Assembly (NCBI GenBank): GCA_964016885.1
Contig: OZ024740.1
Location: 319,858,001-319,922,000 of the forward strand
Source of the DNA: Eledone cirrhosa
Taxonomy: Eukaryota
Direction: 5' to 3'
DNA: 64,000 bases
Part shown: piece by piece, positions 9,705-60,190 of the stretch
Layout of the letters: each line of letters begins with the position of its first letter
How positions within the stretch are numbered: position 1 is the first letter of the stretch
Notes under the pieces: model-generated
Seen by the model: the letters and a program-made list of their open reading frames with translations, nothing else
Databases searched by the model: none
What the model was told of the DNA's origin: nothing
Program-made: the position numbers and the translations under genes

Positions 9705-12700
9705 GTCTACCATGGACATTGTGCAGCCTGGTCTCCAAGAAGTGAGGAGGTAAGTGAATTCTTTCCTCTTCATTTCTAACTCTTCCTCACCAACATGGCC
9801 GATATAAAAGTTGGATGTGTGAATGTGCGCGGCTTGGTGATGCCCTGCAAACTCTTAAACGACCTCAGGTCGCACAGTATGGATGTAATTGCTATCTGTG
9901 AGTCCAGGATCCACAGCGAGCGACAGCTGGCTCACATCTACGATGATTATGAGATCTACGTATCTCTATGTCAGCCTGGAGGTGGGGGCGGGGTTGCCGT
10001 TTTGCTGGAAACAACTGGGCCTCGTAACACAGACGGTACATCTGGACCCGGAGGGTCGACTGGTGGTCCTAGACGTTGGCGGTAGTGAAGATGGAGCCTT
10101 CAGGCTGGTGGCCGCATATACCCCATCCAGGACTCCGCGGCCAGACTTCTTCAAACGTCTAGAGACTTTTCTGGGGACGTCCCGCTCCTTGCTTTTAGTG
10201 GGTGACTGGAATGGAATCCTAGATGCACGTTGGGACTATGTGGGAGCATGTTCCGATAAAGGGTGGGGGGGGGGGGGGGTTGTAACAGCCTCAAACAGTT
10301 AATCGGCCGATTTGACCTGGCCGATAGATATCGACTAGATTTTCCGATTGTGTCACTGTGGACGTGGACTAATCTTAGCGGAACATCTAGATCGTACCTA
10401 GATAGGGTTCTAGTTAGAAATAAGGATAGGGACGTGTTAAGATGTCCACAAATGTTCATGGTTTCCTATTCAGATCACAAACTAGTGACCTGCATGGTCA
10501 ACCTTGATAGAACCCATAGACAAGGACCCGGCTACTGGAAGCTGAACTTGTCGTTACCGTCATGCAAAGCCTACAGTAGACGGATTAGCACTTTACTTAA
10601 ACAGCACTTGACATTGTCAACAACAGATGGTGGTACTCTCTCAAGAGGGCAGTTAGATTAGACTCCTTAGTTTTTAGTAAAGAATTAGCGTTAGATAGAA
10701 ATAGGACCGAGAAGGAACTGGTAGATAAAATAGAAGAGGCAATTAGAAGTGGCAACGTAGCCAGCGTGCTAGCAACGAGAACGGCCTTGGACCAGTTCTT
10801 CGACGCAAAGCACGAGGGCTGCGTTGTCAGAAGCAAAATACGTGCTCTGGGTAATGAGGGAGCCAAAGCTGTTAGCTGGGCCCGGATGACGGAGGCGAAA
10901 AGTGGCAACAAGTCCACGATTCGGTCTTTGAAGGACCAGGGGATACGTGATACGTGAGCCGAAGCAGATGTGCGCGGCCTTTCAGCGGCACTTTTCTCAG
11001 CTGTTCGGGCAGGGCGACGCGCCGGGAGGGGCTATGGATTTCGGTCCATACCTCAATGGCCTGCCGCGACTCTCGGACAGCGAAGCGAAGTTCTGCGAAA
11101 GGCCGATTTCAGCCGCTGAGCCAATGCGGCAAGCGCAAATCTCCAGGTCTCGACGATCTATCCTACGAATTTTACGTAGCAATGTCGGACATGTTCTCTG
11201 TTCTCCTGGAAGCGCTCTACTGCAACTGGCAGCAGAACGGGAGAATTCCCAGTTCTGTGACCAGGGGCGTAGTCACGCAAGTCGGCACCTTACTGAAGGA
11301 ATACGAAAGGTTCACAGGAGCGAAGCTGAACCGGGACAAGTCCATCGGTTTGCAACTCGGATCGCGGAGAGGCAAACCGATGTCTTCCGATGGCGTGGAC
11401 GGAAGGACCGGTAAAGCTGCTCGGGGTCTGGTTCGGTCCGGACCTCCAGGTGGAGAAGAACTGGAACGAGGTGACGGCCAAGGTGTTTGCAGAAGTGGGC
11501 CGAGTGCAAACTATCCTTGAAAGGTCGAGCGGGGGTGGCGAACACTTTTATAGCGTCCGTCATCTACTACCGCTTGACCGTCGTGCCTTGTCCAACCAAA
11601 ACGCTCGCCAAAATGGAGCGCGCGCTCTTCCAATTCCTTTGGAAGAAGCGGGCTGCTTTGGTGAGAAGATCCATCTGCTGCCAACACCCTTCCAACGGAG
11701 GGCTGGGGATGCCGTGGCTGACGATACGCAAACACGCGCTCAGACTGCGACATCTCTACGTATTGCTCACTGGACAACCGGTGTGGGCCCCGTTCGTTCG
11801 TGAGGCGAGCCTTCCCACGACTCGTCTCCCTGACCGAGCTGCAGTCCTGGGTCAAGCAAAGACCGAGCAAAATGGGAGACTGGCACATCGAATGTGCTCA
11901 GGCGCTCACAGCCCTCTGGCAGGCGGACCCAGCGATAAGTGGAGACTCCACTTCGTCATTCTATAGAGGATCCGCAGCAAGTGCGACGACGCGCTCGGAG
12001 AAACTCTAGGCGTAGAGGAAGACGAACTGGCCAGTCTGTTCGGTAGGACCTTCCGCCCGGGACCGATGGACAACTTCCAAAAGTCCCTGGTCTGGCAGTG
12101 CTACCGAGGAGCTCTACCAGTTCGAGACAAACTCTACAGACATGGGTGCCCGGGCAGAGACCCTTCGAAAAAGATCTGTGCGAGATGCGTGCGAGACGAA
12201 GAGACCGTCGCGCACGCATTCATACACTGCCCGGGCGTTACAGACCTGTGGGGCTATGTAGAACGACTATTGTCGTGGGTGGGATCAATCCGGTTAACCA
12301 CCGTGTCCACTGTCATGATCAAACCGCCACCCTCCTTCAAAAACGAAGTAGAGGCGGTTTTCCTTTGTGTGATAGCTATGGCGAAAGAGGTTGTATGGTG
12401 GACGAGGTTAAAAGGGCTGAGGTTAGACACCTTTCTCTCCGGCCAACAACTGATTCTTTTTTTCAAATACCACTTTGGAAGAAGAATCAGGATGGAGAGA
12501 GAGGTACTGTACCCCAGCAAGTTTTATGAAAGGTGGGTGAAAGTGGCGAGAATGGCCCGAGTGAATGGGCCTTCTCTCTATATCAGCCTGTAGGTTGAGG
12601 AAAAAGAGGAAGAGAGGAAAGGGGTACAAACACTTCGTACTCCTGGAGATGAGGGTTGCACATTTTCCGGGGGTATGTGTTACCCATATGAAATGTCTCC

Positions 12701-19399: not shown

Positions 19400-19885
19400 A
19401 AATCTGTAAGCTAATTTGCCTCTAGGGGTTATATTGACGAACATTACGCTCTGGTATTTATTGCTATCATACCAGGAGTTGATTTTATTTGCTATATTCT
19501 TAATCCTTTCTATTCTGTTCCAAAATTTGCTCCTATACATGGGTTAAGTCTCATTTGCATCATTTTCTACAATCTTTACCCATTTGATCCCAGCTCCTTT
19601 ATATACCCTGATTTTGTCTCTCTGATTGTAGCCAGAGAACTGCATGTGGTGGATGAAGTGTTGTATGTGTCTCTCTAATTCTTTAGGGTTGCACGTGCTG
19701 GACACGTTCCTCATCACGCTTACTAAGTCCGCAATCAGTATATTGATTTTTATGTGATCCGAAACAGCTGACTTTCTACTTGGAGGTCATGGGTATGGTA
19801 TAATGGGAATGGAGGATTTGCGTTCTATTATTAATAGTTTCCAACCAGTGTTCTGTGTCTAGTACGAGTAATCTATGGTTAGTGG
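19400..19885 (-). mobile_element. Penelope-like RT thumb-region fragment
   Basis: The minus strand reads LLVLDTEHWLE..ILHSHYTIPMTSK..KINILIADLVSVMRNVS..HFIHHMQFSGYNQRDK..PMYRSKFWNR..WYDSNKYQSVMFVNITP, matching the PLE RT C-terminal pattern; stops and frameshifts. Confidence 0.7.
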
Positions 19886-20950
19886 AAAAGCATTGTTGTT
19901 AAAATAAACACGTTGCCCATTCTCAAGGTGAACCGCAAGCTTTTCAATTGCAGGATACTTCTGATGTATTGGAAAACCAATAATCCGCCAGAAGGCCTCG
20001 TTGCTGCTGATGTATCGCCCCACCTGACACTGCGTAACTTCATCGCGGGAGGATTCATTATGAAAGGCGAACATAGCAGCATCTGAGCCCTTGTTGACGT
20101 ACTTGAAGACATACTTGATGGACTTAATGGAATTGCAGAACTCAACATTGATATGGACATTGAATGTCTTAAGGAGGAGTGGACAGTAAGGTACAATCCA
20201 TCTGTTGTCCACCTCAAAGTTACCAACCTTTGCAGTAAACCTCCCATCCTCAGGATTTCTTCTTCGGTATGATGGATACCCGTCATGACCGGTCTGGGTT
20301 TCGAGAATGAACTTTCTGGGGTATCTTTTGGAGCACCCATTGTCCTTCATACATGGGCAGGATAAATTGAAGCCACGCCCACACGGACCATGCTCCATGT
20401 GTGTCTTAACCTGAACGTAGAGTTCCCTATCAGTTGATGGGTCGGGAAATTCTGCCGATATAATTCTGTCGATGTCATTAGATATAATCTTTGTCGTTAA
20501 CCAAATCAAGATGTGTGCATGTAGCAGACCTCTTTTTTGCCATTCAATTGTATACATGTCACAGTTTGTAGGTCCAAATACATGGCCTGTTTTAATAAAG
20601 TACATGAGTTTAATTAATCGAAGCCTAAATACTCTTTCTGTAAGATCATGCCTGTCTTTGGCCTTTTGACCAGGAAAAAGTTCATTCTCGATCTCCGGGT
20701 TGCAAGTAAAAGTAATAAATAAATCCGGCCTGCCATAATGCCGTACATATGTCATGGCGTCGTGCGTTCTTTCATGCATATATCTGGGGTACCCGGTGAC
20801 AGATGAGGGCAGTATGCACACTTGACCTAGGCTTCCCGGATCTGCATCACCGTTGATTCCATCACGGAGGTGGATGTAACTGTCACAACGAAGCTGTTTT
20901 TGATTCAGTCTGATGAAACACAACCTTTCCGACTCCATTTTTGCACACAT
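19859..20950 (-). pseudogene. Helitron Rep (HUH endonuclease) domain ORF fragment
   Basis: PDLFITFTCNP (motif I), EWQKRGLLHAHILIW (HUH), KSIKYVFKYVNKGSD (YxxxY). Confidence 0.95.
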
Positions 20951-23285
20951 GTCAACAGCGAATTGGTTGAAGAGATCTTGTGAACGGTGAAGGTGATTGA
21001 GGGAGGATTCTCAGATCATGAAGCGGAATGCGTAGAAGTCCATACAGGAAACTTTTTTGGTCGGGTGCTCAGCCTGATTGTTAGCCGTACGCTGCGGAAT
21101 GCCAAAATGGTATCCATCTTCACCATTCACAAAGAGCAGTGGATACTGGAGTGCATCGTAGGATCTATGTGTCTCACTGATGTGCTGGAGGGAGTTGTCT
21201 CGGTGTTTGATGACAATGTCCCTTTTGTTGTTCTGGTCACCGTGCAGGACAATGGCTATTTCATTGCACGAGGGTGCATTACAGCGGCCGGCATGGTCCC
21301 CCGACGGTTTCTTGTCAGCATTAATGATAATTTAAAGTCATCCAAAGCCACTGATTCCAAAACACATTTGAAGCTCCTGACATAGCTGTTGTTCCTATGA
21401 AGCATGTCTTGAAGTTGAAATAGGATATCCAAATCAGTATCGTTGGTAATGGTGTGTCGCCTGGTAGCTTGTTGGTGGGAGTTTGCAATGAAGTACACTT
21501 GAAGAAATCGGAGTTCCTCATTTTCCAAAGGATGCAGTGGTCCAATAAGATGGTACACCTGCCCCTGAACCTTGAAAGTAGGCATAAATCCAGCCTCCGT
21601 GATGCGCTGCGCTCCGAAAGAGGTCATCTGGAAGGCGCAATTGTATTGACGGATGTGACGAAGGAAGCCTCGAGACTCCGACGTAGTTCCGGTAAGAAGA
21701 AGCTGCAATGGTTGTGGCGGATCCTAAAGAGGGGGCAAGTGTACTTTACCATTGGAGCAGCACATTGCTGCAGGTTCTGCTGACCATTTTTTGGCCCTAC
21801 AAAACTGACAAGTGGTGGACATGCTGCCGATTGCAATATCAGGATGGTTTGAATAGTTTTCTAATGGGTCATAATTAAATGCCTTCAATGACCATCGTGA
21901 GCGGGAAGGTCTTGAAATACCCTGTACATTTGCTCTGCGGTGAACAATACCCCCCGACTGGGCGGTTTGGTTAGGGGCGGCCTCGAAAATCCGTCCCGCA
22001 GCAGTAGCATCAGCATCTCTGTTTTGAAGATGTTCACCTTGTTGCTCATTCTCTGCATATTGAGCAGCTGCCGTTGCTGCAGCACCATTTGCAAGGCGAA
22101 TTTCACGTTGTTCATCGGTCACAACAGCTCGTGCGGCTGCAGTGGCGGAAACATCTCTGGTTTGGCGAAGTTGGCGTTGTTCGTCATTCTCATTAGCTCG
22201 TACAGCTGATGTTGCGGCAGCATTTCTGTTCAGACGATTTTTGCGTTGTACGCCATTCTCAGCAACTCGTTTTGCTGCAGTTGCTGTGGCATTTCGTGTT
22301 TGGTGACGTAAACGTCATTCCTCATTCTCAGCAACTCGTGCTATGTTTTCTGACTGACTTATTTCATGATCAATCCTTGCCTTCTTCGTCTGATATTTGG
22401 CCGGCTGCCGCCAAATTGAAGGTTTTCTCTTTTTAGGCATTATCTCGCGGAGTACCAAACTGTTGGCCTAAGTGGGGAAAGTAGCAATAACTTGAGAAGT
22501 TTAAACTTAGATGTTATGCATTGAGAACGATAATTTAGAGGTTAGTAATTTAAACGAAAGAAGAAAAGGTTTAAAAGTAGAAGCACACAATATTCGGAGA
22601 TTCGCAATGTCAACTTAAATTGAGAGAACTGCTAATGTGCATCTTACGCCCGCATTAATGTACGGGGAGTAGAAAATTTAATCGTTTTAACTCCTGCGAA
22701 GCATATAGTATTTATTATTGGTATTAATCTACGGTGGGCGTAAGGCAAATATAGATGGTAGTTTGGTAAAATTAACACAGGAATGACATCAACAACGTAC
22801 TAGAAAGCTTCAAAATACTCGTACAGTTGATCGAGTAACGCCGTGCTATCAAACATATTTCTCACAGGAATATGCACGGTATATGTTCAGTCATGTTGAC
22901 TAATGTTAGTTGCGTAGTCCAATTAGAAATCGCGACCTTCAATCGGGCGAATTATTCAAGGTCGTTTATGGCTTAGCTAGCAATTATTGAGTGCATGTCA
23001 GCTTATGTCAGCTAATTGGCTAGCCAATGAGAGGTCGCCTCAATAGCACGTGCCAAATCGGCATAGTACTTCAAACGTTAAAAGGAGCCTAGTATTTTTA
23101 CACAGACAGATACACACACAAAATCGATTTTTCGACGCCAAAACCTGCTCTGGCATATAAGCAACATGTGTGCCAAATTTGGTTGAAATCGGCCTAGTAC
23201 TTCAAAAGTTAAAAGGAGCCTAGTATTTGTACACAGACAGACACACACACACACAGGCAGACCGACTTGCTTTTATATATATAGA
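19885..23285 (-). mobile_element. Helitron 5' half (Rep domain present, helicase absent)
   Basis: 5' end A|TCTATATATATAAAAGC...GTCTGTCTG...CCGATTTCAACCAAATTTGGCACAC. Frameshifted RepHel from MPKR at about 22440, with CQFCRAKKW..CCSNGKV, YNCAFQMTSFGA and FKVQGQVYH. Confidence 0.93.
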
Positions 23286-24545: not shown

Positions 24546-24610
24546 AATGTCATCCATAGTTAAGTTTGATCTATTTTTGGCAAATATGAAGACTTTGTTC
24601 CGGAGTAACT

Positions 24611-25636
24611 ATGGATGACATTAATATTATCACGCACGCTAGACAAACACGACTGGAATTTCAGAAGGAATACTGGACCAGAAATACATATAGTAATCTA
24701 TTCGGTATTACTATGGGCTCTAGTGATTCTGCCCAAATTACCGATCTTGTGGGCCTCTTTCTTCTATTTAACATAAATTCTTCTCCCCCCCCCCCCCTTA
24801 AAGGTGGTTTATATCGTGATGACTGTCTTCTTCTTTCCACTAACCTTAGCCTATCAGAAATTGAAAAAAATAAAAAACTTAGAACTTTCCTCAAAGACTA
24901 TTATAGTCTCACTATTACATTTGAAAACACCAGTAAAATAGTTACTTTCCTAGATATAACTTTAGACTTATCTACGGGTACCTACCAACCTTACCATAAA
25001 CCTAACCAAAACTTACATTACATACACTCACAATCCTATCACCCTAGATCTATCCTTAAAAACCTAGCATATAATATCTCACTCAGAATTTCTAACCTTT
25101 CATCTAACCAGGATGTATTCGATAAAAATGCGCTCTTTTATAACGAAGCTTTAGCTAGAAGCGGCCACAAAAACAAATTAGTCTATATACCATGCACCAA
25201 TAATACTTCAAACATACAACCCAATATTACCAACAAACACCAAATGAAAAACACACACCTAAATGCCACTTACACTACACCCAAAAATACCAACCTAAAA
25301 TTTAATTTCTCTACCTCTTCTCACATAAAATATAATAACTTTCAGAAAACCATTCATCCTAATACTCCAATATACGTTAATAACATTACTAACAAAATTC
25401 CTAATAATCAGACTAAAACACCTAAATCAGTTAATCAAACTAAACCTATATATAATAAATTCACTAATACTAATTCTCTTAGTAAACATCCTGATACATC
25501 GTATAAATATAAAAAACAACATCGAAACCGTAATAGACGAGTTACTTGGTGTAATGCTCCATTTAATCTACAAATTAAAGATAATATCCCTAAAAAATGT
25601 TTACTATCCAGAGAAAAACTTCCCGCCAAACCATAA
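24611..25636 (+). pseudogene. Penelope-like reverse transcriptase fragment, inverted relative to its EN/3' end
   Basis: FGITMGSSDSAQITDLVGLFLL, GGLYRDDCL, TFLDITLDL, YHKPN..YIHSQSYHP, RISNLSS, EALARSGH, VTWCNAPF. Confidence 0.9.
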
Positions 25637-26396
25637 ATACCATCAAATTTTAAATAGATCAACTGTCTTTTTTTCCTACTCCACTACCAAAAATATACAA
25701 TAAAATATAAGTGCGTACAATGCATATAAATGAAAAAAACACACGAATATACCACCAACAGATCAAACCAACGATAATACTAAAATAAACCGCAACAAAC
25801 CAACATCTCCTTCACATATAACAAGTCGAGTAAATTCCTCGTATCCTTGAGGTATCGATGGTTATAGGTTACTGATATTTATGCTCACAACCTCTAGTCA
25901 AGTATCCTTATGTGGTTAATCGACATGCTAAAAATAGCAGTAAATTCCCTTTAACTGACAACAGCGGCAGGAATCATCATTATAATAATCAAATTGTACA
26001 AGAGCAACAACAACAACAACAACAACAACAACAACGCCAATAAAATTTAAAATCTTAAAACCCTCAATTCGTAAATGCAGAATATTATGCTAAATCTCTG
26101 CATCTCACAGCAAGGCAATGTTTTAATATACATATGAGAGATACACTCTTATTTAAACTATATGAAATTGCAATGCGGAACTATCGGTTCAATGAATAGA
26201 AATAATTGGAGAGTAGAAAGGAAGATATATCCTTTAATGAAAAGGAAGTTGATATTTGCTGTAAATGGTAATATGTGATTTTGGTGCATAAGCTTGCCAT
26301 CAGCAAATGTTTATTGTTATGATTCTATAATTTAACAGCCCAACATTCTCGTTTGTATGCATACACACATACATAGACACATACGTGTGTGCGTGC

Positions 26397-28886: not shown

Positions 28887-28930
28887 ACCGTCCTGATGAA
28901 AGCCAGCCAAGACGGAAATGCATAGACGGT
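28887..28930 (+). ncRNA. Minimal type I hammerhead
   Basis: accgtc-CTGATGA-(weak stem II)-GAAA-tgc-ATA-gacggt; perfect 6-bp stem I; ATGCAT palindrome. Confidence 0.65.
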
Positions 28931-35463: not shown

Positions 35464-35987
35464 ATATATAATATATATATATATATTATAAATATATATT
35501 ATATATATATATATATATAATATATATCCCGTAAGGATGAAAGGCAAAGTTAACCTCGGAGTTCAAATCCCGCCGAGGTTAACTTTGCCTTTCATCCTTA
35601 CGGGGTCGATAAAATAAAGTACCAGTAATGCACTGGGTATTTGCTGGCCTTGTGCCAATAGTCGAAACAATTATATATATATATATATAAGTTGAAATAA
35701 AATGAAAACGAAATTTCATTTCTCACTCTTAGTATGGCACTTACTTAAATGTAAGTATGTATGTATACGTACATACACACATGTATACAGACGTACAGTA
35801 GCATGCATATATATATATATATATACATATATACATACAGGTACACATACATATATGCACGCATCAGTTTAGCGGACGCTTATTATAACGCCGCTTTGTT
35901 CGTTTGTAAACAAACTGAACAGCCTGAATTTATGCCATACGGTGTTAAGGCAACTACGTCACCTTTTTGTTCAACAATGACACAGGA

Positions 35988-36030
35988 ACGATGTACATGT
36001 TTCAAGCTTGTTAACTATCATCAGCACCGT
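35988..36030 (-). ncRNA. Minimal type I hammerhead (also 36461-36503, 36926-36968, 37445-37487, 37924-37966)
   Basis: acggtg-CTGATGA-t-ag(t/c)t(aaca)agct-t-GAAAC-(at/ta)-GTA-catcgt. Confidence 0.85.
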
Positions 36031-36266
36031 ATACCCATCTGCCAGATAGTTGAACGTTCGAAAGTATATACTTTCCTTATGAAAATTAACGGCTGAGCAG
36101 CCTAATTTGCATATTGAGTGAGTTAAATCGGTCAGGCATACCGAAAACGATAAGTTGAAATAAAATGAAAACGAAATTTCATTTCTCACTCTTAGTATGG
36201 CACTTACTTAAATGTAAGTATGTATGTATACGTACATAAATATATGTATACAGACGTACAGTAGCA

Positions 36267-36304
<38 letters not shown>

Positions 36305-36739
36305 TACATACAGGTACACATACATATATGCACGCATCAGTTTAGCGGACGCTTATTATAACGCCGCTTTGTTCGTTTGTAAACAAACTGAACAACCTGA
36401 ATTTATGCCATACGGTGTTAAGGCAACCACGTCACCTTTTTGTTCAACACTGACACAGGAACGATGTACTAGTTTCAAGCTTGTTAGCTATCATCAGCAC
36501 CGTATAACCATCTGCCATATAGTTGAACGTTCGAAAGTATATACTTTCCTTATGAAAATTAACGGCTGAGCAGCCTAATTTGCATATTGAGTGAGTTAAA
36601 TCGGTCAGGCATACCGAAAACGATAAGTTGAAATAAAATGAAAACGAAATTTCATTTCTCACTCTTAGTATGGCACTTACTTAAATGTAAGTATGTATGT
36701 ATACGTACATACACACATGTATACAGACGTACAGTAGCA

Positions 36740-36775
<36 letters not shown>

Positions 36776-37204
36776 CAGGTACACATACATATATGCACGC
36801 ATCAGTTTAGCGGACGCTTATTATAACGCCGCTTTGTTCGTTTGTAAACAAACTGAACAGCCTGAATTTATGCCATACGGTGTTAAGGCAACTACGTCAC
36901 CTTTTTGTTCAACACTGACACAGGAACGATGTACATGTTTCAAGCTTGTTAACTATCATCAGCACCGTATACCCATCTGCCAGATAGTTGAACGTTCGAA
37001 AGTATATACTTTCCTTATGAAAATTAACGGCTGAGCAGCCTAATTTGCATATTGAGTGAGTTAAATCGGTCAGGCATACCGAAAACGATAAGTTGAAATA
37101 AAATGAAAACGAAATTTCATTTCTCACTCTTAGTATGGCACTTACTTAAATGTAAGTATGTATGTATACGTACATAAATATATGTATACAGACGTACAGT
37201 AGCA

Positions 37205-37288
<84 letters not shown>

Positions 37289-37723
37289 TACATACAGGTA
37301 CACATACATATATGCACGCATCAGTTTAGCGGACGCTTATTATAACGCCGCTTTGTTCGTTTGTAAACAAACTGAACAACCTGAATTTATGCCATACGGT
37401 GTTAAGGCAACCACGTCACCTTTTTGTTCAACACTGACACAGGAACGATGTACTAGTTTCAAGCTTGTTAGCTATCATCAGCACCGTATAACCATCTGCC
37501 ATATAGTTGAACGTTCGAAAGTATATACTTTCCTTATGAAAATTAACGGCTGAGCAGCCTAATTTGCATATTGAGTGAGTTAAATCGGTCAGGCATACCG
37601 AAAACGATAAGTTGAAATAAAATGAAAACGAAATTTCATTTCTCACTCTTAGTATGGCACTTACTTAAATGTAAGTATGTATGTATACGTACATACACAC
37701 ATGTATACAGACGTACAGTAGCA

Positions 37724-37773
<50 letters not shown>

Positions 37774-38202
37774 CAGGTACACATACATATATGCACGCAT
37801 CAGTTTAGCGGACGCTTATTATAACGCCGCTTTGTTCGTTTGTAAACAAACTGAACAGCCTGAATTTATGCCATACGGTGTTAAGGCAACCACGTCACCT
37901 TTTTGTTCAACACTGACACAGGAACGATGTACATGTTTCAAGCTTGTTAACTATCATCAGCACCGTATACCCATCTGCCAGATAGTTGAACGTTCGAAAG
38001 TATATACTTTCCTTATGAAAATTAACGGCTGAGCAGCCTAATTTGCATATTGAGTGAGTTAAATCGGTCAGGCATACCGAAAACGATAAGTTGAAATAAA
38101 ATGAAAACGAAATTTCATTTCTCACTCTTAGTATGGCACTTACTTAAATGTAAGTATGTATGTATACGTACATACATATATGTATACAGACGTACAGTAG
38201 CA

Positions 38203-38256
<54 letters not shown>

Positions 38257-38396
38257 TATACATATATACATACAGGTACACATACATATATGCACGCATC
38301 AGTTTAGCGGACGCTTATTATAACGCCGCTTTGTTCGTTTGTAAACAAACTGAACAGCCTGAATTTATGCCATACGGTGTTAAGGCAGATGGGTAT

Positions 38397-38439
38397 ACGG
38401 TGCTGATGATAGCTAACAAGCTTGAAACATGTACATCGT
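38397..38439 (+). ncRNA. Minimal type I hammerhead in the inverted unit
   Basis: acggtgCTGATGAtagctaacaagcttGAAACatGTAcatcgt. Confidence 0.85.
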
Positions 38440-44114: not shown

Positions 44115-44283
44115 TTAATTTGAGAGGTACAGAGTTCGATTCTCTGTAGTGTCTGGTGGTCATTTTTTCTGTCAATAGGGACATTTTGCTCAATTTTCTA
44201 AACTATTGTCTTTTGTTTTCTCTTATTCCGAACTATTCGTCGCATACCACCATGTGTTTGTTTTCTTCCCTCCGTTTTCCCAC

Positions 44284-44387
44284 TGTCCCGATAACTTAAT
44301 TGAGTTATCGCTCGCACTGATTTTAGGTATATAGTCTTTAATGCGCCGAAATACCAACGATAAATCAGAAGACTACTGAAGAGGACA
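44284..44387 (+). ncRNA. Rearranged (non-circularly permuted) hammerhead ribozyme, copy A
   Basis: tgtcc-hairpin-ctcgca-ctgattt-ta-ggtat-A-tagtctt-taa-tgcg-cc-GAAA-tacc-aacgat-aaatcag-aagacta-CTGAAGA-ggaca. Confidence 0.75.
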
Positions 44388-44675
44388 TTTTAACCCTTGT
44401 CTATTTTTATTCATATATATATATATATATCTGAACATCGAATGCTTTTACCCAAAAAGTAGAACTGGTCTACATCATTGGATGCAAAGGAAGTCGCAGG
44501 TTTTATGTTGGAGTGACATTCTCCTAGACAGGTGTCTTAATGAAGACTATAGGAGGTCTCTCACTCCACTGACCCTCTAAAAAATACATTATTGGATGGC
44601 CGTTGACTCTCCTGAGATCCTCCGCCCTTTGACAGGTTTTGTTTTTTATCTCGCAGGGTGTCCAAATCACTCTCC

Positions 44676-50511: not shown

Positions 50512-51404
50512 CGAGGTGGGTCAGAAAAGTTCCAGGACTGATGTCACAAAAGATTCATTTCAAACCCAAACTTCACACTAAGAGTTTTCTCCTTCAAAGT
50601 AATCCCCCTGGAGTCTAATGCACTTTTCCATCCTTTTCTGCCACGCTTGCATGCACTCCTGGAAGGATTCTTCCGGGATCCTCCGCAGTTCCGTCGTCAC
50701 GGCCTTTTTTATGTCGTCCACGTCTTCAAAACGGGTCCCCTCCGGTTCGTACTCAAAGATCCATGACTCATCACCGGTGATGACTGTCCCTAGCAAGTCT
50801 GGTTCGGTTTCAAGACGCTCGAGGATGTCCTGACACAATTGCATGCGTCGACCCTTCTGGTCATCATTCAGCAGTTTTGGCACCATCTTCGCGCAGACTT
50901 TGCGCATGTCCAAATCTTCAGTGAGAATCTTCCAGACGCTGTCCCGATTCATGCCAAGCTCATTTGCCTTCAGTCGAACAGTCAGTCGACGATCGCTACG
51001 CACCATCTGCCTGACGCGCTCAACGTTGACCTCAGTGGTTGTTGAGGACCTTCCGCTCCTGGGGTCATCTTCCACATCCTCGCGTCCTTCTTTAAACCTC
51101 TTGCACCACTCAAAAACACGTGAACGTGACATCGTCTCATCTCCATACACTTGCTGCTGCAATCCCAGTGCTTCTGACGGAGTTCTCAACTTTGTTCGTT
51201 GCTCTGTGCTCATTGCTTGACGACCTGAAACAGAAGACATGTATATAAAATTATGCAGAAAAAAGTTTGATCGCTGCAGAGAGCTAAGATTACAGTTACA
51301 TATTCCAGGGGGATTACTTTGAAGGAGAAAACTCTTAGTGTGAAGTTCGGGTTTGAAATAAATGTTTTGTGACATCAGTCCTGGAACTTTTCTGACACAC
51401 CTCG
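50512..51404 (-). mobile_element. Mariner transposon, internally deleted, with inverted termini of about 100 bp
   Basis: TIR CGAGGTG(G/T)GTCAGAAAAGTTCCAGGACTG, TA flanks; ORF with VYGDETMSRSRVFEWCKRFKEGREDVEDDPRSGR, KMVPKLL, TGDESW and a GDYFEG C-terminus. Confidence 0.95.
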
Positions 51405-53332: not shown

Positions 53333-53401
<69 letters not shown>

Positions 53402-53447
53402 AATAATGGAGCTGCGGTGCTGCAAATGGGTTACATATGAAAAAGTT

Positions 53448-53555
53448 TGTCCTCATCAGTGGCCATCCAACCGTCGTAGGCATTTCGTCGCATTAAAGGC
53501 CATATACCTCAGGTTGGTGCGAGCAACGGCTAAAAAAAAAAAAGTCGTTGGGACA
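53448..53555 (-). ncRNA. Rearranged hammerhead ribozyme, copy B
   Basis: tgtcc-hairpin-ctcgca-ccaacc-tg-aggtat-A-tggcc-tttaa-tgcga-c-GAAA-tgcct-acgac-ggttgg-at-ggcca-CTGATGA-ggaca. Confidence 0.78.
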
Positions 53556-53811
53556 CGTAAATAAAGGGGACGCTAGGGTAAACAAACAAAATGGTTTAAG
53601 CAGCAGAAAGTGATGAAGAAGGAAACAAGTCCCAGATTTCTATGAATATAAATTCGGTGGAATCGTGAACGAGAGAATAAAGACCATCAAACCTGGTTGA
53701 AATGTGAGCAAGGAAGGAATTTCGCACAGGTCTAACGGGAGGAAGAAGGGGTCTGGTCTGCGAATTCGGTAAATATAAGTTCTGTGAATATATATATATA
53801 TATATAAACAG

Positions 53812-59729: not shown

Positions 59730-59770
<41 letters not shown>

Positions 59771-59830
59771 AAACATGGGAAGAAAGAGGAAAACTGCGTG
59801 GTTGCACATGGGTTACATATTATAAAATTA

Positions 59831-59933
59831 GTCCCTCATCAGTGATTTGCCAACCATCATTGGTATTTCATCGCATTAAAAATCATATACCTCAGGTTGG
59901 TGCGAGCAATAACTAAAATAAGCTATTGGGACA
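59831..59933 (-). ncRNA. Rearranged hammerhead ribozyme, copy C
   Basis: tgtcc-hairpin-ctcgca-ccaacc-tg-aggtat-A-tgattt-ttaa-tgcga-t-GAAA-tacc-aatgat-ggttgg-c-aaatca-CTGATGA-gggac. Confidence 0.78.
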
Positions 59934-60190
59934 AGTGAATCGTGTAAAGCGAGTGAGACAAGTAAACAACATAGAAGGAAAAGCAAACCGAAGGTAGGAA
60001 AAAAGCAAGCAACATGATGGTTATCCGGTCAGCATAATCTGGGTGAATTTCATGGGCGGTCAGAAAACAGACCATCCGACGTGAATGAGATGTGAGAAAG
60101 AAAGAATCCCACTACTAACGAGGGTGTGCGCTTGCATGTGTGATTTGTATGCATCTGTATGACTGCCTGTTTATTTTTTCATCTATATCT

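Follow-up and report, generated by a model that had tools for sequence, protein, structure and literature searches.

The question raised by this locus is whether a hammerhead whose conserved strands stand in an unusual order is a real RNA structure and, if so, which kind of hammerhead it resembles and what element carries it. The window, meaning the entire 64,000-nucleotide stretch of the Eledone cirrhosa genome analyzed here, contains copies A, B, and C of the motif, and copy C is our focus. On the minus strand, positions 59831–59932 carry a complete hammerhead core in a noncircular order: the cut site, followed by GAAA, followed by CUGAUGA. Read 5' to 3', the blocks are ordered S-G-C, the order that defines the type-SGC hammerhead, and the CUGAnGA, GAAA, and UH elements adjoin stems I and III, as the definition of a hammerhead specifies. 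Our favored explanation, which we regard as probable, is that copy C is a non-coding, subfamily-C Penelope-like retroelement whose RNA likely folds into a rearranged hammerhead with predicted self-cleavage after 59886, and that the retroelement likely derives from the 3' end of Naiad elements.

The locus and its predicted fold

The features of copy C, its insertion site, and the other window copies are as follows.

59770–60121, minus strand: subfamily-C non-coding Penelope-like repeat, 5'-truncated, about 350 of about 529 bp, recognized by homology to 29 other loci, with the unit length taken from tandems
59929–59932, minus strand: helix a, 5' strand, pairing with 59834–59831, which would clamp RNA entry and exit
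59907–59928, minus strand: hairpin b, 8 bp including one G.U (strands 59928–59921 and 59914–59907), with a 6-nt loop; 4 of 8 pairs change on both sides
59901–59905, minus strand: splint strand c, pairing with 59875–59871 and replacing the stem II strand normally found 3' of CUGAnGA; 2 of 5 pairs change on both sides
59895–59900, minus strand: brace d, 5' strand, pairing with 59855–59850, an analogue of the stem I–II interaction; 5 of 6 pairs change on both sides, 100% paired
59892–59894, minus strand: short strand of a kink-turn predicted from the sequence (partner 59861–59856)
59880–59891, minus strand: block S, comprising a stem III strand (59891–59888, pairing with 59865–59862), U16.1 (59887), A17 (59886, predicted cut 3' of A17), and a stem I strand (59885–59880, pairing with 59848–59843, 6 bp)
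59871–59879, minus strand: 4-nt linker (59879–59876) and the c' strand of stem II (59875–59871)
59862–59870, minus strand: block G, comprising position 11.1 (U, 59870), GAAA (59869–59866), and a stem III strand
59850–59861, minus strand: bulged strand of the predicted kink-turn, and brace strand d' (59855–59850)
59831–59848, minus strand: block C, comprising a stem I strand, CUGAUGA (59842–59836), one spacer G (59835), and a' (59834–59831)
59770–59820, minus strand: 3' tail, missing from one class of copies, mostly inverted ones
59731–59767, no strand: (TA)n target microsatellite at the 3' junction, the same junction in all 30 loci compared
53395–53790, minus strand: window copy B, subfamily B, predicted cut after 53503 (ends approximate)
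44205–44415, plus strand: window copy A, subfamily A, predicted cut after 44331 (ends approximate)

Much of this layout had been anticipated by the initial annotation. The hairpin, helix c, brace, and core that it assigned to copy C are all present on the minus strand, and stem I differs between copies as it described (6 bp in copy C, 5 bp in copy B of the window). The predicted cleavage, as located with a generic descriptor, falls at the position the annotation gave, after minus-strand nucleotide 59886, and the downstream motif said to be common to copies B and C is there and opens the 3' tail. The extent proposed for the feature, 59770–60190, needs trimming: positions 59770–60121 are the element, which starts at approximately 60121, and 60122–60190 lie outside it. 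Specifically, homology of copy C to the 29 other loci stops near 60121 and at the TA run.

Taken alone, the nested part of the copy C fold is unremarkable (z -1.52; 15 of 200 shuffles are as good), and hairpin b has an alternative in subfamilies B, C, D, and H, where its 3' strand could shift register and pair with c'. Rfam returns three weak matches for 59770–60190, none of them a hammerhead, and no hammerhead appears among the 150 listed of its 258 matches for the whole window. The missing hammerhead match is expected because the strand order is pseudoknotted.

A kink-turn is marked by two helices that flank a 3-nt bulge and, directly after it, tandem G.A and A.G pairs. Copy C shows this signature, with tandem GA/GA, in the loop that joins stem III to the brace, as do 12 of 17 family consensuses; one position of the signature is U in A and F2, and M, J, and J2 do not fit it. 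It is likely that a kink-turn folds stem III back. Eckert et al. (PMC10085705) noted a sharp bend in the SGC fold as a geometric puzzle, and the predicted kink-turn would supply that bend.

Selection on the fold

Copies of the motif are numerous in the 3.0-Gb assembly. The copy C query yields 1,504 candidates, and the 40 of these that were scored are 99–100% identical, while the copy B and copy A queries yield 1,423 and 1,136. A 33-place exact pattern matches 2,390 times versus 0 for the reversed control, a second exact pattern of the motif matches 954 places (control 0), and a pattern for family K, with nothing fixed on the cut-site side, matches 236 times (control 1). A generic S-G-C descriptor, run over 805,997 bases comprising the window and mostly targeted loci, gives 242 hits, 239 of which are the rearranged motif; on reversed sequence it gives 0.

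To what extent is the fold itself maintained? In an alignment of one real copy from each of 11 subfamilies, 96.8% of 374 cells are paired versus 85.8% after shuffling, and both-sided change occurs in 17 of 34 pairs versus 8.6 +/- 1.7; 0 of 500 shuffles reach either value. Sliding the partners leaves at most 46.3% paired. All six helices contribute to the covariation, including the crossing helices c (2 of 5 pairs) and stem I (4 of 6). Helix a is 84% paired in this alignment, an undercount, as A and B are one column out of register. In a tree-aware test on the 30 pairs outside helix a, the two sides require 29 and 30 steps, and no fewer than 23 of these coincide; the re-pairing control has a mean of 3.8 and a maximum of 11 (0 of 2000).

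The 11 core columns differ by a mean of 0.017 in the 11-subfamily alignment, paired columns by 0.245, and unpaired columns by 0.290. Paired columns are therefore barely slower than unpaired ones, and the signal lies in partners changing in concert. The initial annotation had set against selection the outcome in which paired positions change at the rate of the flanks and show no covariation. That is not what we see: over 55 subfamily pairs, mean identity is 0.74 in the ribozyme, 0.59–0.60 upstream, and 0.58 downstream, with shuffled values of 0.49–0.52. Between subfamilies C and B in particular, identity is 0.76 in the ribozyme and 0.53–0.61 upstream, in keeping with the reported greater divergence of the upstream region.

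Two biases favor pairing. Representatives in the alignment had passed a structure-scored filter, and the patterns with 2,390 and 954 matches fixed parts of c, stem III, and stem I. Family M answers both, because its members (23 sequences, from a family with 1,225 candidates) were gathered and aligned by similarity alone, yet pair. In its majority sequence, different letters form c (6 bp), d (8 bp), and stems I and III, and pairing at a and b is seen by eye. Families M, K, and J have unrelated helix sequences and keep the design, and the M, K, L, and J consensuses all retain an intact core. Within the old family M, core decay is 7 of 194 versus 182 of 1791 in the rest, among loci chosen as the best matches to one copy, which limits what the contrast can show. 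The 11-subfamily covariation and the tree-aware control together support the earlier proposal that the fold is under selection across subfamilies, i.e., that it is a real, selected RNA structure.

One refinement concerns copy C itself. It was thought to carry its own compensatory substitutions, and there are none: copy C equals its subfamily consensus across the ribozyme. Of five both-sided differences between B and C, three are found in B only, one in C, I, and H only, and one splits the 11 subfamilies in two. The substitutions that distinguish B from C mark subfamilies rather than copy C.

Insertion architecture, relatives, and a proposed cycle

Copies of the repeat have a constant 3' end that runs into (TA)n, fixed at 66–115 nt downstream of the motif, and variable 5' ends. 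Units of approximately 529 bp (C), 622 bp (B), or 497 bp (H) occur singly, head to tail (up to 8), or with inverted 5' pieces. The 43 B arrays listed divide by end point: 23 run through the tail, 16 stop immediately short of it, and 4 have some other end. Partial tandems, 5' inversions, a one-sided tail, and a microsatellite target are the hallmarks of a non-autonomous Penelope-like element (PLE). PLE insertions are described as partial tandems with inverted 5' copies, 30–40 bp one-sided tails, and (TA)n targets (PMC8557442), and the architecture of the copy C repeat matches, including the one-sided 3' extension. Two other identities were considered and rejected. A tRNA-derived SINE head is ruled out, as the window has no tRNA gene, and an apparent 3.3-kb autonomous unit, suggested by four copies, is instead a local duplication because those four copies share their entire flanks while other loci match only the short element.

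Among PLEs, Naiads invite comparison. They are reported without a canonical hammerhead, some being marked "HHR_core" or "HHR_half_core" (Craig et al. 2021, PMC8557442). We compared the 3' ends of 14 of the 54 consensus sequences in its supplement by eye, without computed alignment, and the six-helix design appears in 4 of the 14, from a coral, a squid, and two octopuses. The octopus elements Naiad_Obim and Naiad_Ovul have the hairpin b loop and both predicted kink-turn strands in common with copy C. In the squid element, Naiad_Esco, the brace and stems I and III are clear by eye and c is imperfect. The record preceding Naiad_Aacu, which by table order is the coral Naiad_Amil, also carries the design by eye: a and b are present, c' directly adjoins GAAA, the brace has 10 bp and stem III 11 bp, and the linker is again 4 nt long. 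Ovul and Esco bear one of the half-core or core marks; Obim and Amil bear none (PMC8557442). The design is absent by eye from the other 10 of the 14 ends, of which Omin, Adux, and Tama are listed as incomplete. The copy C repeat resembles Naiads in its (TA)n targets, its tandem and inverted insertions, and its one-sided tail, and differs in having no ORF (PMC8557442). The repeat likely descended from the 3' end of Naiad elements. In the same supplement, two oyster Naiads have a conserved GC-rich 3' motif without a hammerhead core, and in a spider Naiad the core is in canonical order and stem II is long. There may be more than one kind of 3' RNA among Naiads.

Non-LTR retrozymes share with the copy C repeat few-hundred-base non-coding units with one hammerhead each, occurrence as monomers and tandems, and a PLE-derived origin (PMC7229834; 10.64898/2026.07.22.740005). 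They are defined by a type I hammerhead, and their RNA has been shown to be circular (same sources). The copy C repeat has the non-coding tandem units with one hammerhead each, and its hammerhead is ordered S-G-C rather than being of type I. The survey of Li et al. 2026 uses type I models only (10.64898/2026.07.22.740005).

Which element might mobilize the repeat? We found no coding Naiad with the motif in the assembly, only decayed remnants. A pattern for the Naiad RT motif matches once (control 2), and the sole match is a heavily decayed remnant (locus L224, also L225:5000–8000, plus strand) with four distant relatives in the assembly; the rearranged motif was not found downstream of the remnant or of these relatives. 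A Neptune-like element was tried as the autonomous partner. It is young, with intact 834-aa ORFs (e.g., locus L118), pseudo-LTRs, and 39,734 candidates in the assembly, and none of the 10 loci examined has the rearranged motif. The window itself holds a broken, 5'-truncated Penelope-like RT/GIY-YIG element with an inverted piece upstream (24590–25780, plus strand), which we take to be Neptune-like by its motifs. PLE fragments near motif copies, likewise considered as partners, end in other 3' regions, some with canonical-order cores.

The proposed cycle is as follows. Transcripts reading through tandems would be cut at each unit, yielding unit-length RNAs. Because helices a, c, d, and III would hold both cut ends together, each unit could readily be closed into a circle. 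A Penelope-type reverse transcriptase/endonuclease acting in trans would then copy the circle into nicked (TA)n from an internal start, located roughly 115 (or 66) nt past the cut, and would continue around the circle, so that the resulting tandems have random 5' ends. A circular template predicts arrays that pass through an upstream cut site, and at least 17 B and H arrays extend 5' in this way.

The 5' ends speak to the form of the template. Among listed loci, 47 start in the interval -5 to +7 and 49 in the interval -20 to -8 (same genomic range; hand count), so starts at the predicted cut are not enriched over positions just upstream; whole reverse-strand start counts are 89 and 59. Among 20 loci chosen for starting at the cut, 16 consist of a single piece from cut to tail, and the other 4 run on into a full unit. 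TATA microhomology confounds this test. In the absence of a pile-up of 5' ends at the cut, there is no genomic sign of cleaved linear templates, and the start positions fit a circular or uncut template.

The same lack of a pile-up, together with the fixed 3' ends 66–115 nt downstream of the motif, would suit a different role, namely that the fold is real and is kept as a recognition or priming signal for a Penelope-type reverse transcriptase, with catalysis slow or lost in subfamily C. Features of copy C also lean this way. Canonical PLE hammerheads likewise lie close to the 3' terminus of a PLE-type unit and have an extra base after A9, and they have canonical order, a palindromic or absent stem III, and a conserved G10.1–C11.1 pair (PMC4209133), none of which is found in copy C. 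Stem I of copy C has one G-C in six pairs, and its triplet is AUA, which is present in natural active hammerheads but slower (PMC1636495). The missing G10.1–C11.1, the weak stem I, and the AUA triplet count against strong activity of C. Nonetheless, the 11 core columns stay nearly invariant across 11 subfamilies while the helices turn over, and the core is intact even in the M, K, L, and J consensuses, an exact set that a binding signal would not need. We consider a role purely in recognition unlikely.

We likewise weighed, and find quite unlikely, a ribozyme active only across neighboring tandem units, as in dimeric PLE and retrozyme hammerheads, with block C and a' of one unit joining the splint, S, and G blocks of the next. 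Suitable tandems exist, every helix can also be drawn between adjacent units, and metazoan PLE hammerheads often need dimers (PMC4209133). Against this arrangement, a stretch of about 105 nt in a single unit suffices to close every one of the six helices, stem III consists of 4 nonpalindromic pairs, and the short linkers (4 nt, 1 nt, and 3 nt) are conserved.

A proposed rewiring of stem II

If the predicted ribozyme acts within one unit, what type is it? Like HRIMA-1 and its variants (Eckert et al. 2023, PMC10085705), the copy C motif has the S-G-C block order, an intact core, a short linker between stems I and II, here 4 nt, and a helix tying those stems together, here brace d. Type-SGC hammerheads cleave in vitro at rates of 0.007–0.19 per min. 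Block C of that type, i.e., the stem I strand, CUGAnGA, and the stem II strand, is taken as indivisible, with at most 1–2 inserted bases (PMC10085705). In copy C, by contrast, the stem II strand lies upstream of block S, with two helices intervening. Specifically, the bases 3' of CUGAnGA pair with a, and those 5' of GAAA pair with c; a, hairpin b, and c are contiguous upstream of block S, placing two helices between A9 and stem II. The strands adjoining CUGAnGA and GAAA can form at most 1 bp of stem II. The fold is best read as an SGC-type hammerhead with its original ends joined and a new opening placed between A9 and stem II, and we infer that the upstream strand a-b-c-d supplies both stem II and the stem I–II brace. 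It would work like a type-SGC hammerhead yet lack one of its defining features. The type-SGC RNAs come from metatranscriptomes, with a known-organism genome given only for one type-GCS candidate (PMC10085705), unlike the copy C motif, which has thousands of copies in an animal genome.

That remaining single pair invites another reading, in which the motif would be a type-SGC hammerhead of the ordinary kind: the base after A9 and position 11.1 would make up a minimal, 1-bp stem II, and a, b, and c would be accessory. Such a pair (G-C, G.U, or A-U) is possible in A, B, C, D, H, K, and L2. In copy C, position 11.1 is U, facing either C on the splint (a mismatch) or G after A9 (G.U). The pair is impossible in M (C/C), J and J2 (A/C), and F and F2 (A/A), and a reading by eye of the coral Naiad record, in which no base separates c' from GAAA, gives the same result; moreover, helix c covaries. 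We judge this reading very unlikely. In families M, J, and G, c' is also flush with GAAA. Family M, with C following A9 and no gap before GAAA, must draw the first pair of stem II from the splint, and in M and J that first pair is G-C from the splint. Positions 10.1–11.1 are not a constant pair across families. The automatic helix finder chose wrong or alternative registers for several families, and only clear rows were used here. Finally, chance complementarity in an AT-rich repeat, inherited without selection, fits the modest nested folding score and the lack of an Rfam hammerhead match and has almost no probability left, being refuted by the tree-aware control (0 of 2000); the covariation (0 of 500 shuffles) and a design kept in families with unrelated helix sequences also speak against it.

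For hammerheads, six block permutations are thought possible. We lean, by a little, toward regarding the copy C fold as a seventh natural wiring, in which the chain would enter and leave via a new helix between A9 and stem II, and at once as the missing ribozyme of one branch of Naiads, from corals to cephalopods, and, through its clamped ends, a self-circularizing driver of repeated waves of non-coding copies, thousands strong, in this genome. The literature searched, so far as its accessible portions go, holds no description of this design; the supplementary SGC alignments of PMC10085705 could hold a similar form. If the motif cleaves, it breaks the assumption that CUGAnGA and the stem II strand are inseparable, and it would be, within the literature searched, the first noncircularly permuted hammerhead at high copy in an animal genome. 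Cleavage would also explain the "half cores" that descriptor searches find in some Naiads, and it would mean that genome surveys with type I–III models miss whole ribozyme families. The role of hammerheads in Penelope-type retrotransposition would then be testable on a 110-nt RNA with a dozen natural variants.

Other families accompany these. The distant families J and J2 (770-bp unit; L136:2354–3227, plus strand, and L211, L218, and L231) have the strand order of copy C; their triplets are GUC or GUU, and little or nothing separates c' from GAAA. Old family M (L247:2950–3100, minus strand, and L252–L270) has approximately 82% identity, a longer hairpin b, and a 3-nt spacer after A9. In the window, a 473-bp unit repeated 5.6 times (35687–38387, minus strand), also present at 38403, 53063, and 58165 (plus strand), forms a classical retrozyme-like family, in which every unit has a minimal hammerhead core in canonical order (CUGAUGA, short stem II, GAAA, palindromic stem III). 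A further canonical-order hammerhead-like motif with a 5-bp stem I lies at 28893–28930 (plus strand). The window also contains decayed ORF pieces that are presumably LINE, Helitron-like, and mariner-like, at 9889–12593 (plus strand), 19859–22314 (minus strand), and 50578–51300 (minus strand).
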